From the NCBI GenBank assembly GCA_038217285.1, contig JBBQPO010000040.1, positions 1 to 29,524 on the forward strand: DNA of 29,524 bases. The letters run 5' to 3'. The notes beneath the pieces were generated by a model. The model saw only the letters and a list, made by a program, of their open reading frames with translations. It did not search any database and had not been told where the DNA came from. Positions 24,171-29,524 of this stretch are shown here, one piece after another. This stretch comes from Chthonomonadales bacterium. Lineage in GTDB: Bacteria > Armatimonadota > Chthonomonadetes > Chthonomonadales > Chthonomonadaceae. How positions within the stretch are numbered: position 1 is the first letter of the stretch; the number at the start of each line of letters is the position of its first letter. A program made the position numbers and the translations under genes.

Positions 24171-24746
24171 GTGTTAAACCTATCGGATAAGTCTCTGATT
24201 CAGTCCTGTCTTAACGGAGATAGACAGGCTTGGGACAGACTGATCCTGCGATATGAACGCCTGATCTACAATATCGCCTTACGGGCAGGCCTCTCTGCGG
24301 AAGACAGTGCGGACGTCTTCCAGGATGTCTGCCTGCAACTTATGAATAACCTCGAAAAGCTGACGGGCGACTTCAACGTTGCGGGTTGGCTGACACAGAC
24401 CACACACTGGGAATGCTTGCGTGTTCTGCGGAATAAGCGGCGCACCAGCTCTTTTACGGAAATGGAAGCCGAAGACGGGACCACTCCCATCAACCAGAGC
24501 CCCTCATTCGACCCGTTGCCCCTGGAAGTCATGCTGGTTCTGGAACAGGAGCAGATCGTTCGCAGCGCAATGGAAGAGCTTGGGGAGAGTTGCCGACGTC
24601 TGCTCATGCTGCTCTACCAGACCGATCCGGTGCCTTCCTACGCAGAAGTCGCACGTCAGTTCGATATCGTGGAGGGGGCGGTCGGTCCGAAGCGTGCCCG
24701 CTGCCTCAGCGGCCTCCGCAAAATTCTGAACCGTCGCGGCTTCTAA
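24171..24746 (+). CDS. ECF-type sigma-70 factor
   Basis: Region 2: DKSLIQSCLNGDRQAWDRLILRYERLIY...DSADVFQDVCL...GWL. Region 4: CRRLLMLLY...SYAEVARQFDIVEGAVGPKRARCLSGLR. Confidence 0.92.
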   Translation: MLNLSDKSLIQSCLNGDRQAWDRLILRYERLIYNIALRAGLSAEDSADVFQDVCLQLMNNLEKLTGDFNVAGWLTQTTHWECLRVLRNKRRTSSFTEMEAEDGTTPINQSPSFDPLPLEVMLVLEQEQIVRSAMEELGESCRRLLMLLYQTDPVPSYAEVARQFDIVEGAVGPKRARCLSGLRKILNRRGF

Positions 24747-25074: not shown

Positions 25075-25668
25075 ATGCAGATTCGAGAACACATTGCAGA
25101 CGAAATGTTGTTGGATTATATCGAACAGCGTGGCGGTCTGGCAACGGAACGCAATGTCCGTGCACATCTGGCGACCGGCTGCGCCGAATGTCAGGACAGC
25201 CTGAACTACTGGCAGAAAATGCTCCGCGTCGTTCAGGATAAGACGATGACCACCCCGCTGCCCGTGCTGGAGCGTGCCTTCGCGCTGTTCGCAGAGCGAC
25301 AGGCCCCCGTATCCCTGCGACAGAGGGTGATGGCGACGCTACGGTTCGACAGCCGCGTTCAACCCGAACTGGCTGGCGCCCGTGATGGCGACCGAACCTC
25401 GTTCAAACTGCTCTTCGAAGCTCCGAACACCCGTATCGATCTGCTCTGTGAGCGTTCAGGTCCGGACTGGAGTATCGCTGGACAGGTTCTCTCTCTGGAG
25501 AGCAAGGACTACCTCTGGAAAGTGCTGGCAACCGGCACCGATAAGGTCGTTCGCACAGATGCCGATACGCTGGGTGAATTCCACCTGAGTGGACTGCGCA
25601 CCGGGGAGTACGATCTACTTCTGCAGGAACGCAGCCGCGAAATTACCCTGCCTGCCATTCAACTCTGA
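25075..25668 (+). CDS. Soluble putative anti-sigma factor: N-terminal zinc-binding (ZAS-like) domain plus C-terminal beta-sandwich (carboxypeptidase-regulatory-like) domain
   Basis: HIADEMLLDY...VRAHLATGCAEC (H...HxxxxCxxC). Linker LRFDS...LAGAR. C-terminus IAGQVL...DTLGEFHLSGLRTGEYDL. No TM helix. Directly downstream of the ECF sigma gene. Confidence 0.75.
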   Translation: MQIREHIADEMLLDYIEQRGGLATERNVRAHLATGCAECQDSLNYWQKMLRVVQDKTMTTPLPVLERAFALFAERQAPVSLRQRVMATLRFDSRVQPELAGARDGDRTSFKLLFEAPNTRIDLLCERSGPDWSIAGQVLSLESKDYLWKVLATGTDKVVRTDADTLGEFHLSGLRTGEYDLLLQERSREITLPAIQL

Positions 25669-25728
25669 TCCGCCTCTACTCTCTCTCTGCAAAGTAGAGA
25701 CAAGGGAATGCGCCCGTGACCGCTAACC

Positions 25729-25763
25729 GGGACTATCGCCTGACTATAGCAGGCGATAGTCCC
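25729..25763 (+). other. Perfect 14-bp intergenic hairpin between the anti-sigma and TPR-CHAT genes
   Basis: GGGACTATCGCCTG-ACTATAG-CAGGCGATAGTCCC, with no U-tract. Confidence 0.65.
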
Positions 25764-25814
25764 CCAAGTAGCCTACCGTTTGCTTCCATAATGTACGTCG
25801 AGAGGCCTGTATTT

Positions 25815-28670
25815 ATGCTCAATGACGCCGTGTTGCAACAGTTGAAAGACCTCCCTGCCGACCAACTGGCAGCGCATATTGCGTTGCTTGCCGCCGATAT
25901 TTCCGAGGCGGATGTTCAGCATTTGGCAGAGGCCGCGCGTAAGTTTTCGACGGATAACCCTGTCGAAGCCTTGCGCCTTGCCGAAATTGCGGTCCACATG
26001 GCAGCCTTCCTCAACACTGCTCGCCCGCGCGCGATCGCGCAGCGCGCCTATGGGGTTGCCCTGCGGGAGCAGGGGCAATGGGCCGAAGCCATCGCCTGCT
26101 TCGATGCTGGCGTCGAGGCGGCGATGGCCGCCGGAGACGCCCTGCTTGCGGCGCAAATCCCCATCGCAAAGATAGATACGCTTACCCATTTGGGTTGCTA
26201 TGACGAAGCGTTCGCTCTCGCCGGTACGCTTGCAAAGCAGTTAGAAACTCTGGGGTCTCCTGAAGACGCTGCCAAGGTGATGTGGAATGTCGGCAACGTT
26301 CACTTTCGGCAAGAATCGTATGCCCTCGCAGGAGAGTGCTGGCGTAAAGCCCTGGGCTATTTCGAGGCGCAGGGACAAAAGGTCGCGACGGCCCGACTGC
26401 AGATGAACATTGCCAACGTATTGACCCACCTGAATCATTTGCCCGAGGCCCTGGAGATGTTCCAGGCTGCCCGTTCGGCTCTGAGCGATACAAACACGGA
26501 CCGTACGATCGCGTTTCTTGACAGCAATATCGGTTTTCACCAATTTATGGGCGGTCGCTACACCGAAGCGCTGCAGTCTTATACCCGAGCGCGATACCGC
26601 CTGGTAGATCTGGCGCTCCCGCAAGAGGTCGCACAGTGTGACCGGGAAACGGCGGACGTCTATCTGGAGCTCAATCTGGTTCCCGAAGCGCGCGAGACGT
26701 TTGAACGGGTTATTCCGACATTCCAGCAGTTGAATATGACCGGCGAAGCGTCGCGCAGTGAGATGGGCCTCTCCCTTGCGCTGGCCTCCGAAGGCAGACA
26801 TGAGGAAGCGCTGCAGGCTCTGGAACGTGCAGAAAAGGGATTCCGAAAAGAGGGCAACCGGATCGGAGTAGCTCGGGCACGCCTGCAGCGGACCGAGTGG
26901 TGGCGCCGGGAGAACCCAGGGGGACACGGCAGCCCGGACGCTCAAGAGGAGGGACGGCAGCAGCGGGAGACTAGGGCGGCCTTACGCACCTTTCGCAAAC
27001 AGGGCGTCAAGATGGGGGTTTTGCAGTCTCGCTTGCATCTGGCGGAGATGAGGGTTGATCGCGGCGAAAGCCCGATCCGCATGTTGCGTTGTCTGTCTCA
27101 AGAAGCCGAGAAAGGATCGCTGATTGCGCTCCAGTGGCGTGTCGAGACCGCGCTTGCGCGCGCCTACATGAATGCAGGTCGCTGGCAGCTCGGCTTGAAG
27201 TACTACCGACGCGCGGTAGAAGCCGTCGAACGTGTGCGTCTGCTGCTCTATGGGGACGATTTCCGGGTGGCATTCCTGCAGGATAAGATGCGTCTCTACG
27301 AAGAGCTGCTGGCCCTCTTACTGGATCGCGGAACCCCGGCGGCTATTCAGGAGAGCTTCCAACTGGTGGAGCGTTCTAAATCGCGTACACTTCTGGAGCG
27401 GTTGGCGTCGATTCCGCGGGCCAGCGCCGATGCGACCGGAGCACAACAGGCCCGACTGACGCGGCTGGAAGAGTTGCGGAGCCAGTTGAACTGGGACTAT
27501 ACGCGTCTGGAGCAGGCCGCCGGGGACACCGTGCGCCTTTCCAATGCCGAAGCAGTGCCCTCGGAGCGTATTCAGGATCTGGAAACCGCCTACCTCCAGA
27601 CACACCGCGAACTCCAGATTATGGGAGATGGAACCGAGTTATCGCCGGATATGGACGCGGTCCGCATCCGAGACATCCAGAACCTGCTCACCGACGACGA
27701 GCAGATCGTCGAGTTTGTGACCATTCGTGACGAGGTGCTGGCGTTCGTCGTCAGTCGAACTCGTTTCCGTACATTCCGTTGTCTGGCGTCACGGACGGAA
27801 GTGGAAGAACTGGCCCACCGTCTGCGCTATCAATGGAACAAGTTCGGCCCGGTCGTGATGGAAAATGGCTATTCCGACCAGATCGCCGCTGCTACGGACA
27901 ACTTGCTCGTCTCCCTTTACGAACTGCTGATGGAGCCTCTGGAAGCGGAGCTTTCCTCGGCACGACTGACAATTATTCCCCATGGGACACTGCACAGTAT
28001 TCCGTTCCACGCACTGCGGACGGGAGAGGGCTATGTGCTGGATCGCTGGGAGGTCGCGTATGCGCCCAGTGCGGCCGTCTGGCGGTTCTGTCGCCTGCGC
28101 CCAGAGCCCCAGGGAGATCGGTCGCTTGTGTTCGGATTCAGTGACCCGGATATTGCGCATGTCCAGGAGGAGGTTGCCGCGCTCGCAGGTCTCTTACCCG
28201 CCGTGGACGTTTTTGAAAACGACGCCGCGAATCTCAACAATGTCCCGTCAGAGGGTTCCTATAAGTACCTCCACTTTGCAACCCACGCGATTTTCCGCAA
28301 GGACAACCCGCTCTTCTCCGGCCTCAAACTGTCGGATGGATGGTTGATCGCACATGACCTGTACCATCGTCGGCTCGACTGTTCGCTGGCGACCCTGTCG
28401 GCCTGCCGGACTGGCATGAGCGCTGTCGTTCCCGGAGACGAACTGCTGGGACTGGCGCGCGGTTTCTTGAGTTCCGGCGCTCGCGCCGTCATGGTCAGCC
28501 TATGGGCGGCCCATGACGAAGCGACCGCACAACTGATGGTGCAATGTTACTCCCGCATGGCGCAAGGCGCTTCGCGGGCCACGGCATTGCGAGAGGCGCA
28601 GCAGGCGGTGCGTAAACTCTATCCCCATCCTTACTACTGGGCCGCATTCGCACTCATCGGGGCGCGCTAA
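25815..28670 (+). CDS. TPR-repeat CHAT-domain (caspase/HetF-like, clan CD) protease
   Basis: Start re-placed at ATG 25815 (GAGAGG RBS). Long TPR-like helical array, then ERSKSRTLLE, IIPHGTLHSIPFHAL, YAPSA, HFATHA (catalytic His), LSACRTG (catalytic Cys), GLARGFLSSGARAVMVSLW, HPYYWAAF. No signal peptide. Confidence 0.93.
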   Translation: MLNDAVLQQLKDLPADQLAAHIALLAADISEADVQHLAEAARKFSTDNPVEALRLAEIAVHMAAFLNTARPRAIAQRAYGVALREQGQWAEAIACFDAGVEAAMAAGDALLAAQIPIAKIDTLTHLGCYDEAFALAGTLAKQLETLGSPEDAAKVMWNVGNVHFRQESYALAGECWRKALGYFEAQGQKVATARLQMNIANVLTHLNHLPEALEMFQAARSALSDTNTDRTIAFLDSNIGFHQFMGGRYTEALQSYTRARYRLVDLALPQEVAQCDRETADVYLELNLVPEARETFERVIPTFQQLNMTGEASRSEMGLSLALASEGRHEEALQALERAEKGFRKEGNRIGVARARLQRTEWWRRENPGGHGSPDAQEEGRQQRETRAALRTFRKQGVKMGVLQSRLHLAEMRVDRGESPIRMLRCLSQEAEKGSLIALQWRVETALARAYMNAGRWQLGLKYYRRAVEAVERVRLLLYGDDFRVAFLQDKMRLYEELLALLLDRGTPAAIQESFQLVERSKSRTLLERLASIPRASADATGAQQARLTRLEELRSQLNWDYTRLEQAAGDTVRLSNAEAVPSERIQDLETAYLQTHRELQIMGDGTELSPDMDAVRIRDIQNLLTDDEQIVEFVTIRDEVLAFVVSRTRFRTFRCLASRTEVEELAHRLRYQWNKFGPVVMENGYSDQIAAATDNLLVSLYELLMEPLEAELSSARLTIIPHGTLHSIPFHALRTGEGYVLDRWEVAYAPSAAVWRFCRLRPEPQGDRSLVFGFSDPDIAHVQEEVAALAGLLPAVDVFENDAANLNNVPSEGSYKYLHFATHAIFRKDNPLFSGLKLSDGWLIAHDLYHRRLDCSLATLSACRTGMSAVVPGDELLGLARGFLSSGARAVMVSLWAAHDEATAQLMVQCYSRMAQGASRATALREAQQAVRKLYPHPYYWAAFALIGAR

Positions 28671-28732: not shown

Positions 28733-28750
28733 TGCGAAGTGAACTTCGCA
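28733..28750. promoter_or_regulatory. Inverted repeat upstream of the subtilase gene (candidate operator)
   Basis: TGCGAAGT-GA-ACTTCGCA, about 45 nt before the start codon. Confidence 0.35.
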
Positions 28751-28794: not shown

Positions 28795-29524
28795 TTGCAA
28801 AAACGAATTTTTTCTCTGGCGCTGATGCTGGTACTGACTTGTATGGGAATGGCCTCTTATGCCATCGACTATGCTCCCAACGAGGTGCTGGTGCATCTGA
28901 AACCCGGTATGGACATCGTCGCCTTCAATCAGACCTTCAACACGACGACCCTCGCCGCATCGATCTATAACAACTCTTTCCGACTCGCATCTGTAGCGAG
29001 AGTGGATATTCCCACCCTGGTATCACAGATGACGATGGACAGTCGGGTGGCGTCGGCCAGTGTGAACCTCAATAATCGTGCCCTGGACACGGTCGTCACC
29101 GATCAGTTCATCTTTGCGGCGGATGCCGACGTAACTCATGCGAGTCAGTTCATCTTCGCAGCCGATCAGTACACCTTCACGAGTACGCAGTTCATCTTCG
29201 CGGCCGACCAGTTCATCTTCGCGGCCGACAGTAATCCCGGACTGTATGCCTACATGGGTCAATCGACTTCGTCGCTTATTCACTATGGCGCGACATCGAA
29301 GCGCTTCGACGGTAGGGGAGTTCTGGTCGCCGTACTGGACACCGGTATCTCAACGCGCAACGTCCTCCTCTCCTCCCACGTCACGACCGGATGGAACTTC
29401 GTGGACGGAAACAGCAATACGGACGACGTCCCTGCCGGTATCGACAGCAACGGCAACGGCGTCTTAGACGAATCTGCGGGGCATGGCACGATGGTCTCCG
29501 GCCTCATCAACCGCTATGCACAGG
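28795..29524 (+). CDS. Secreted S8 subtilisin-like serine protease, 3'-truncated by the window end (not in the ORF track)
   Basis: AAGGAG (28783-28788), then TTG at 28795; the frame stays open to the window end. Manual translation gives the signal peptide MQKRIFSLALMLVLTCMGMASYA, a propeptide (YAPNEVLVHLKPG...), a repeat insert, DGRGVLVAVLDTG (catalytic Asp), GWNFVD and AGHGTMVSGLI (catalytic His). Confidence 0.92.
   Translation, partial: MQKRIFSLALMLVLTCMGMASYAIDYAPNEVLVHLKPGMDIVAFNQTFNTTTLAASIYNNSFRLASVARVDIPTLVSQMTMDSRVASASVNLNNRALDTVVTDQFIFAADADVTHASQFIFAADQYTFTSTQFIFAADQFIFAADSNPGLYAYMGQSTSSLIHYGATSKRFDGRGVLVAVLDTGISTRNVLLSSHVTTGWNFVDGNSNTDDVPAGIDSNGNGVLDESAGHGTMVSGLINRYAQ
29104..29229 (+). 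repeat. In-frame 21-nt (7-aa) period array inside the subtilase: QFIFAAD-ADVTHAS-QFIFAAD-QYTFTST-QFIFAAD-QFIFAAD
   Basis: QFIFAAD copies at 29104-29124, 29146-29166, 29188-29208 and 29209-29229. The two intervening units are each exactly 21 nt. Confidence 0.92.

Follow-up and report, generated by a model that had tools for sequence, protein, structure and literature searches.

A tandem heptad array at the predicted propeptide junction of a secreted subtilase from Chthonomonadales-like Armatimonadota

In the textbook view of subtilase maturation, one propeptide is removed by one primary cut. Here we analyzed the 29,524-bp contig JBBQPO010000040.1 from a soil/sediment bacterium of the phylum Armatimonadota, which ends in a gene for a secreted subtilisin-type protease of peptidase family S8. 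Between its propeptide core and its catalytic domain, this protease carries a heptad array, that is, six seven-residue units in tandem, four of which read QFIFAAD. The window, meaning the whole stretch of DNA analyzed, is one entire contig (C40) of a draft genome (G000) of 6.2 Mb with 60% G+C in 459 contigs. The protein is similar to the pro-subtilisins (3WHI, 2E1P; thermitase) in its signal peptide, propeptide core, tail and Asp-His-Ser catalytic domain. Whereas pro-subtilisins have one tail and one primary cut, the array-bearing clade described below has the tail motif in two to six tandem copies that are kept identical. No repeated junction array in a subtilase propeptide was found in the full-text literature searched, the coverage of which excludes subscription journals. 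The array suggests that the peptide product as such, or how many tails can be cleaved, is of importance.

In the RRNPP(A) systems of Bacillota, tandemly duplicated Phr pheromone propeptides are processed by extracellular proteases and sensed by TPR receptors (available excerpts of PMC11343458). As far as these excerpts describe them, their exported multi-copy precursor, extracellular maturation of the subtilisin type and cytoplasmic TPR protein encoded next door have putative counterparts in our locus. Unlike in RRNPP(A), the array peptides lie inside the propeptide of the protease itself (~440 aa) and not in a small separate gene, the neighbouring TPR protein is fused to a CHAT protease and not to a phosphatase or DNA-binding domain, and the host belongs to the Armatimonadota and not to the Bacillota. 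The locus is not a member of RRNPP, since it has no small precursor gene (0 of 79 candidates, none in the genome) and a different receptor type.

The yeast alpha-factor precursor is a multi-core precursor of the same type as the fungal Kex2-processed repeat proteins. The latter contain tandem identical peptide cores, partly separated by spacers, which are excised by an S8-family protease (PMC7329392 and PMC9769878, both in excerpt). All of these are separate precursors with dibasic sites, and kexin acts on them in the secretory pathway. In the S8 array, by contrast, precursor and protease form one polypeptide and there are no dibasic sites. By analogy, the array may work like a multi-core peptide precursor of the Phr or Kex2 repeat protein type that is fused to its own processing enzyme.

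The third comparison concerns the gene next door, which encodes a TPR-CHAT protein. To our knowledge, a trigger of TPR-CHAT proteases is known only for the CRISPR-bound craspase. TPR-CHAT proteins have been tied to sigma/anti-sigma control in the DdvA-DdvS pair (PMC11506125) and in the craspase system with Csx29, Csx30 and RpoE (PMC10028731), as far as the accessible sections of both papers go. Within that coverage, both resemble the window in having a TPR-CHAT protein with a conserved His/Cys pair that is tied to a sigma factor of the extracytoplasmic function (ECF) type and an anti-sigma-like protein. Unlike craspase, the window contains no CRISPR component, and its TPR-CHAT protein matched the Csx29 model with 49 bits, far below the cutoff of 300 bits. 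Unlike DdvA as portrayed in the accessible text, it is a separate soluble protein and not the periplasmic domain of a membrane anti-sigma factor. A further difference to both systems is the secreted S8 protease, which is a constant fourth member of the cassette. Cas7-11/gRAMP and Csx30/Csx31 were absent from the Pfam matches of the window, no dedicated search for them being made. The locus cannot be called a craspase system. It does provide a concrete, synthesisable candidate ligand for the activation of a stand-alone TPR-CHAT protein, a link that is potentially far-reaching but unproven.

The heptad array and the junction motif of the S8 family

The features of the protease gene within the window are as follows.

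28795..29524, + strand: S8 subtilase, N-terminal 243 residues; Pfam Peptidase_S8 (PF00082) matches residues 173-238 above cutoff
28795..28863, + strand: Sec-type signal peptide, residues 1-23, ending in ASYA, read by eye
28864..29070, + strand: propeptide core, beta-alpha-beta-beta-alpha-beta; strands and helices at 29-94 in the AlphaFold2 model of an orthologue, with a predicted local distance difference test (pLDDT) value of ~97
29104..29229, + strand: heptad array of six units, residues 104-145 of the translation; its final unit matches in alignment the one junction motif of all other family members
29230..29232, + strand: predicted first mature residue, Ser146, placed by homology only and to within ~2 residues
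29338..29340, + strand: catalytic Asp182 (VLDTG), an invariant column in an alignment of 93 sequences
29482..29484, + strand: catalytic His230 (GHGT), likewise invariant in the 93-sequence alignment

Residues 104-145 in the translation of 28795-29523 (+) read QFIFAAD-ADVTHAS-QFIFAAD-QYTFTST-QFIFAAD-QFIFAAD, and the six 21-nt units start at positions 29104, 29125, 29146, 29167, 29188 and 29209. Tandem Repeats Finder reported an array of period 21 at 29146-29232 with a score of 89. The four QFIFAAD copies differ solely at TTT/TTC, GCG/GCA, GCG/GCC and GAT/GAC, all of which are synonymous, and copies 3 and 4 are identical at the DNA level. ADVTHAS is a spacer of the form AD-x4-S/T, which is conserved in orthologues after an early copy. 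QYTFTST is a decayed unit; in some relatives the same slot contains an intact unit and in the nearest ones DYVYS[ST]D. Following the array, the protein continues with SNPGLY and then with the VLDTG and GHGT motifs of the catalytic Asp and His. The translation thus reproduced every detail of a preliminary description of this DNA, namely six units in register, four QFIFAAD copies and exclusively synonymous differences, and the relatives bear out its view of QYTFTST as a diverged unit. That description had also proposed a genome search for other open reading frames (ORFs) containing QFIFAAD. In a six-frame scan of all 459 contigs, both QFIFAAD and the looser pattern QF[IVL]F[AS]AD were absent outside the four array sites. 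The array is not an assembly artefact, because similar arrays are present in three other genomes of the genus and in 17 further metagenomic proteins.

A six-frame search of 61 related genomes gave matches in 35. Three orthologues from the same genus have QFIFTAD in four, five and six copies, share the AD-x4-S/T spacer after an early copy and continue with ...RNPGL[FY]AY... after the last one; a fourth orthologue is truncated where its contig ends. In more distant S8 genes of this order, one related motif occupies that place (QLAFAFD, EFLFAFD, QIHFAFD; two copies in one gene), followed by x-G-P-x-P-G-x-Y-x-N-Q. Using a complete orthologue of 434 aa (P0004) as query against 5.8 billion proteins, we obtained 2,908 matches at E ≤ 1e-10, of which the best 120 were examined; source names among the matches listed were Chthonomonadaceae, Chthonomonadales and Armatimonadetes metagenome-assembled genomes (MAGs). 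Among these best 120 of 2,908, all 21 full-length proteins with ≥ 57% identity contain two to six QFIF-x-A-x units. None of the other 98 proteins listed has such a multi-unit array; they carry a single QW[TSV]S[TG]F[DN], [HP]FHFAFD or similar motif, QWTSTFD being a further example from relatives. When 93 sequences were aligned with MAFFT, the last QFIFxAD unit shared its columns with the lone QW.S.F[DN], HFHFAFD or QLAFAFD motif of 72 others. The preliminary description had placed such an insert outside the standard subtilase fold. This needs correcting insofar as the unit is native to the family: a homologous motif occurs once at the junction in all relatives, and its multiplication alone is special.

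The array is also narrowly distributed. A DNA pattern for two adjacent units was found in 3 of 401 genomes of the phylum, belonging to 1 of 207 genera, and the reversed pattern used as control gave no hit; the fourth array-bearing genome of the genus (G004) lies outside this sample. Words from the array region retrieved 197 candidates of 238-760 aa from the 5.8-billion-protein collection, of which 11 matched, all of them S8 proteases of the array clade. In proteins of 30-237 aa from the same collection, the motif was present in none of 79 word-sharing candidates. The motif is therefore exclusive to this S8 clade, with neither a stand-alone precursor nor another carrier, and the array-bearing clade consists of this genus and the 17 metagenomic proteins, with two to six intact copies. 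Taken together, the alignments and searches show that the heptad corresponds, as judged by homology, to the conserved propeptide/mature junction motif of the family, tandemly amplified in one clade of Chthonomonadales-like Armatimonadota. Metagenome contigs of other samples covering 29186-29226 contain related arrays with QFIFTAD, QFIFTAN or QFIFSAN units.

To locate the array within the zymogen, we used both sequence and structural comparisons. Among solved structures, thermitase is nearest in sequence (E 8e-40); its residue 28 is paired with residue 171 of P0004, and ungapped extension places mature residue 1 at about residue 144, the last residue of the last heptad of P0004 (residues 138-144). 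An AlphaFold2 model of P0004 had a pLDDT of 88 and a predicted template modelling score (pTM) of 0.86, with confident propeptide core and catalytic domain. Short strands were predicted in the first copy (105-107) and the last copy (140-143) and a helix from residue 145 onwards; residues 107-135, comprising the middle copies, had a pLDDT < 50 and no regular structure and are predicted to be disordered. In the AlphaFold2 model of the single-copy paralogue from this genome, the motif block had a pLDDT of 63 and formed a short strand only (118-121). The best Foldseek match of the P0004 model was unautoprocessed pro-subtilisin E (3WHI). According to VIA-align, model residues 27-434 superimpose on pro-subtilisin E (3WHI) and pro-Tk-subtilisin (2E1P) with Z scores of 44-45 and root mean square deviations of 2.2-2.7; the alignment of the model with thermitase has a Z score of 41 at 38% identity. 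The outputs of both programs are residue ranges, not contacts. Model residue 145 or 146 is the counterpart of residue 1 in the mature forms of Savinase, subtilisin E and BPN', and model residue 146 pairs with thermitase residue 4. Since mature residue 1 is thus placed right after the last heptad, the array fills the stretch between propeptide core and mature enzyme, in agreement with the location at the propeptide/catalytic junction that had been proposed at the outset. The last unit is predicted to lie immediately N-terminal to the expected scissile bond, with an uncertainty of ~2 residues. The spacing from the propeptide core to the first copy and that from the last copy to the catalytic domain are both like those of single-copy relatives, as expected from expansion at the motif itself.

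The open reading frame of the protease begins with a TTG start codon at 28795 and runs off the contig end at 29524. The C-terminal 189 residues are encoded at the start of another contig of the genome (C123, positions 1-567), which matches Peptidase_S8 profile positions 83-273 and includes the catalytic Ser (GTSFSAP). The next gene on that contig encodes a PSCyt1/PSCyt2/PSD1 protein, the same synteny as in orthologues. About three codons, G-A-S/T in orthologues, are absent at the break between 29524 and the start of C123. Full-length orthologues, which also match PF00082 above its cutoff, have 434-448 aa, with equivalent N-termini ending in AKA, AHA or AFA, and the orthologue of G002 is matched by the Pfam Fervidolysin_NPro-like family. 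The columns of the Asp-His-Ser triad, in this order, are all invariant in the 93 S8 sequences. In view of the agreement in triad, fold and propeptide packing, we assign the window protein to peptidase family S8, with a propeptide of the fervidolysin/I9 type.

For an estimate of selection, we counted substitutions in the 19 units of the four genomes that match QFIF[TA]AD; in such a unit, ~4 of 21 sites are synonymous. Within genomes, these intact copies differ by at least 25 synonymous and 0 non-synonymous changes, as anticipated by the preliminary description, which had already taken the synonymous differences as a sign of selection on the peptide. Units are bimodal, being either intact or different at five or six of the seven residues, with hardly any intermediates. 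Q1, F2, I3, F4 and A6 are constant in the 21 proteins except for two first units, QVVFKAD in P0005 and QIVFKAD in P0009. Two positions, 5 (T, S, N, G, A) and 7 (D, N, G), differ from protein to protein and are near-uniform within one protein; for example, position 5 is Ala in all four copies of the window protein (GCG, GCA, GCG, GCG) and Thr in three sister genomes. The copy number ranges from 2 to 6 across array-bearing proteins, and one environmental contig has 42 extra bases, or two units, at the array (single contig, depth 3.7). The array is a real, non-random and selected feature, showing birth-and-death turnover of units under purifying selection on the peptide.

Multiplication at this place is not confined to the QFIF units. 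A profile search of 1.84 billion cluster representatives yielded 150 further family members, and the ~110 residues before the catalytic Asp were scanned for repeats in 240 evaluable proteins out of 252. In the propeptide linker, P0182 has four copies of GNTRDIYGW, and a protein from a Chloroflexota MAG (L046 6001-7419) that is 74% identical to P0182 has two copies of the same unit with a spacer. Other members have, in the same linker, two copies of IDPRTIFF (P0233), two of W[ST]SGFN (P0031), three of NSSGYVEPxPDP (P0035) or two of QLAFAFD (L011). The remaining repeated 4-mers look like chance. Multiplication of the linker has thus happened several times independently, with unrelated sequences.

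The sigma/anti-sigma-like/TPR-CHAT/S8 cassette

Three genes in the same orientation precede the S8 gene in the window.

24171..24746, + strand: ECF-type sigma factor, first gene of the cassette; Pfam Sigma70_r2, NCBIfam TIGR02937 with 74 bits versus a cutoff of 42.9
25075..25668, + strand: soluble anti-sigma-like protein of 197 aa; His/Cys-x2-Cys near the N-terminus, no Pfam match
25716..28670, + strand: TPR-CHAT (caspase-like) protein of 984 aa; Pfam CHAT with E 5e-62 and several TPR families

The 197-aa protein gave a weak, sub-threshold NCBIfam match to the anti-sigma factor RsrA (E 8e-4), and no hydrophobic segment was recognized by eye. By the same inspection, the TPR-CHAT protein has neither a signal peptide nor a membrane segment. 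The His and Cys of its CHAT domain are invariant in 13 homologues (13-row alignment).

In 15 of 18 related Armatimonadota loci, the gene directly upstream of S8 encodes a TPR-CHAT protein. In the other three, all from one genus, the neighbours are FG-GAP, URO-D and hydantoinase genes instead. Most cassettes of relatives have an ORF of ~190-225 aa in the slot of the anti-sigma-like gene, and the sigma gene and the ~200-aa ORF are present in relatives wherever the upstream DNA reached far enough. The TPR-CHAT proteins of the conserved cassette (L022-L040, L046, L047) have about 950-990 aa. The Chloroflexota MAG shows the same order of a 213-aa ORF, TPR-CHAT and S8, and in one metagenome contig a CHAT gene is located upstream of S8. 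In addition, our genome (C10; L038 7524-14493) and that of a relative (G002, C188; L040) possess a second, paralogous sigma/TPR-CHAT/S8 cassette. Its junction motif is PFHLAFD in one copy, and the sigma gene and a 206-aa ORF are separated by an additional DUF4382/DUF5666 gene. Linkage to CHAT thus characterizes this S8 family as a whole and is not peculiar to its repeat-bearing members. From gene order and predicted export signals, the four-gene cassette appears to be conserved across two phyla, with the S8 protease as its only exported member. A paper on this cassette was not found in the full-text literature searched.

We also looked for connections between the array and the TPR-CHAT protein. 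A complex prediction with residues 45-984 of TPR-CHAT (13-row alignment) and residues 96-147 of S8 gave a score of 0.00 in two runs without controls, which speaks neither for nor against a contact. No peptide transporter was present among the genes of the window, the genome not being searched for Opp. In the Chloroflexota MAG, a gene for a family-5 solute-binding protein of the oligopeptide-binding family (SBP_bac_5; L046 3-1580, minus strand) is located divergently beside the cassette; this position may be a coincidence.

Explanations for the array

Our best explanation, to which we give a somewhat better than even probability, takes the lineage-specific multiplication of the family's junction motif as an amplified self-processing site: each copy would be cut by the enzyme itself, so that maturation would shed several heptapeptides. 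In maturing subtilisins, the active-site cleft holds the propeptide's C-terminal tail, initially as substrate and then as product inhibitor. By this tail-in-cleft mechanism, each heptad copy would be a substrate-like strand for the enzyme's own cleft and could be bound and cut there. Self-processing after export would then lead to cuts at or beside every copy, and each zymogen would release several identical hydrophobic heptapeptides together with one or two spacer-extended forms derived from the early copies, instead of undergoing a single cut. What selection acts on would be how many cleavable or inhibitory tails each molecule has, or how many peptides it releases. The peptides might serve as product-type inhibitor or timer of the protease, as a signal, or for nothing. 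If the released peptide or the tail number is what counts, the selection of many identical copies, and its repeated occurrence, would be more readily understood.

Several points weigh against self-cleavage at every copy. An Ala or Asp before the cut, i.e., a small or acidic residue, does not correspond to the classical P1 preference of subtilisins. The register of the scissile bond is placed by homology only and is uncertain by ~2 residues, and the confidence of the models at the junction is moderate to low, with a pLDDT of 64 for the last-copy block, < 50 for the middle copies and 63 for the block of the single-copy paralogue. The substitution count was conditioned on a regular expression that left out two units of G000, one of G004, two of G002 and two spacers of G001; as these in-register units fail the pattern, some array positions clearly tolerate decay. 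Finally, the last two copies are identical in DNA sequence in both G000 and G004, which indicates ongoing slippage-type turnover, a neutral process. The array might be no more than an expanded flexible linker produced by tolerated slippage, in which the last or the first copy alone is the junction and the rest is spacer without own function. The DNA-identical terminal copies agree with this, as do the variation from 2 to 6 copies between close relatives, the 42 extra bases in the environmental contig (single contig, depth 3.7), the tolerated decayed units and variable spacers, the predicted disorder of the middle copies and the other kinds of repeats found in the same linker. A functionless linker is contradicted, however, by the at least 25 synonymous versus 0 non-synonymous changes among the 19 intact copies and by the constancy of Q1, F2, I3, F4 and A6 in all but two units of 21 proteins. 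Moreover, units are either intact or strongly changed, whereas neutral decay of spare copies would give a continuum. We therefore regard slippage without function as unlikely.

The remaining explanations assign the array a partner or a structural role. One of them builds on self-cleavage and extends it to a multi-copy signal: the shed heptapeptides would be re-imported and bind the cytoplasmic TPR-CHAT protein, which would cut the anti-sigma-like protein and free the ECF sigma factor. If true, this would be a peptide-activated caspase-like receptor in an RRNPP-like, quorum-type circuit outside the Bacillota, with a peptide amplified independently in Armatimonadota and Chloroflexota. The cassette is conserved, with TPR-CHAT directly upstream in 15 of 18 loci as well as in the window, the Chloroflexota MAG and the metagenome contig. 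Only S8 is exported, whereas sigma factor, anti-sigma-like protein and TPR-CHAT look cytoplasmic, which leaves a module without an obvious sensor of the outside. The copies are kept identical and multiplied, as a dose of released peptide would predict, and a further CHAT-linked S8 underwent the same process independently, its units being unrelated. Between the two paralogous cassettes of the genome the motif differs (QFIFAAD versus PFHLAFD), and there are known parallels in the tandem Phr propeptides (PMC11343458) and in TPR-CHAT/sigma control (PMC11506125, PMC10028731), within the parts of these papers cited above. CHAT linkage is equal in single-copy members, however, so that the repeats are not singled out; the location of the motif at the processing junction is enough to account for its conservation; the window has no peptide transporter; and S8 may be a mere output of the sigma factor. 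Import of the heptapeptides and binding and activation of TPR-CHAT by them are purely hypothetical steps, neither supported nor excluded by our data, and we judge the signal, which the preliminary description had listed as its first alternative, to be rather improbable. Its second alternative, caspase-like cleavage sites or decoys for the neighbouring CHAT protease, takes up the adjacency of the genes and the Asp at the end of every unit. It is disfavoured by topology, since S8 has a Sec-type signal peptide and TPR-CHAT by eye has no export signal, so that different compartments are expected. In a number of relatives the unit ends in Asn or Gly instead, and craspase is reported to cut Csx30 at a non-conserved site (available part of PMC11106740), which lends no support to a caspase-like Asp rule; this function is the one we would least expect. 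Hardly more plausible is the third alternative, an amyloid-like, beta-aggregating or solenoid module that polymerises or anchors the zymogen. The F-I-F core is probably strongly hydrophobic and beta-prone, and the model has a short strand at each end of the array, in the first copy and in the last. The model has a pLDDT < 50 and no regular secondary structure at residues 107-135, however, so that the disordered middle copies lend this role no support, the units are only seven residues long and broken by polar spacers, and the same motif is found in single-copy relatives, where its position has a known role.

Other features of the locus

The rest of the window comprises unrelated housekeeping and glycoside-hydrolase genes. 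PADLOC recognized no known defence system at the locus; it returned generic subtilase and IetS matches only for S8 and none for TPR-CHAT, the anti-sigma-like protein or the sigma factor. Among the best profile matches were also several very long proteins (1,200-6,900 aa; P0124-P0138, P0187). They contain between two and four S8-like stretches and may be fused or multi-protease forms of the family. By-eye inspection of four S8 and three sigma upstream regions revealed no shared -35/-10 pattern that we would trust. The 124-nt gap between TPR-CHAT and the S8 start contains a perfect 8-bp inverted repeat at 28733-28750 (TGCGAAGT / ACTTCGCA) with a 2-nt spacer, which could be an operator or an RNA hairpin. 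A similar but imperfect inverted repeat is located at the same place in the orthologue of G001.

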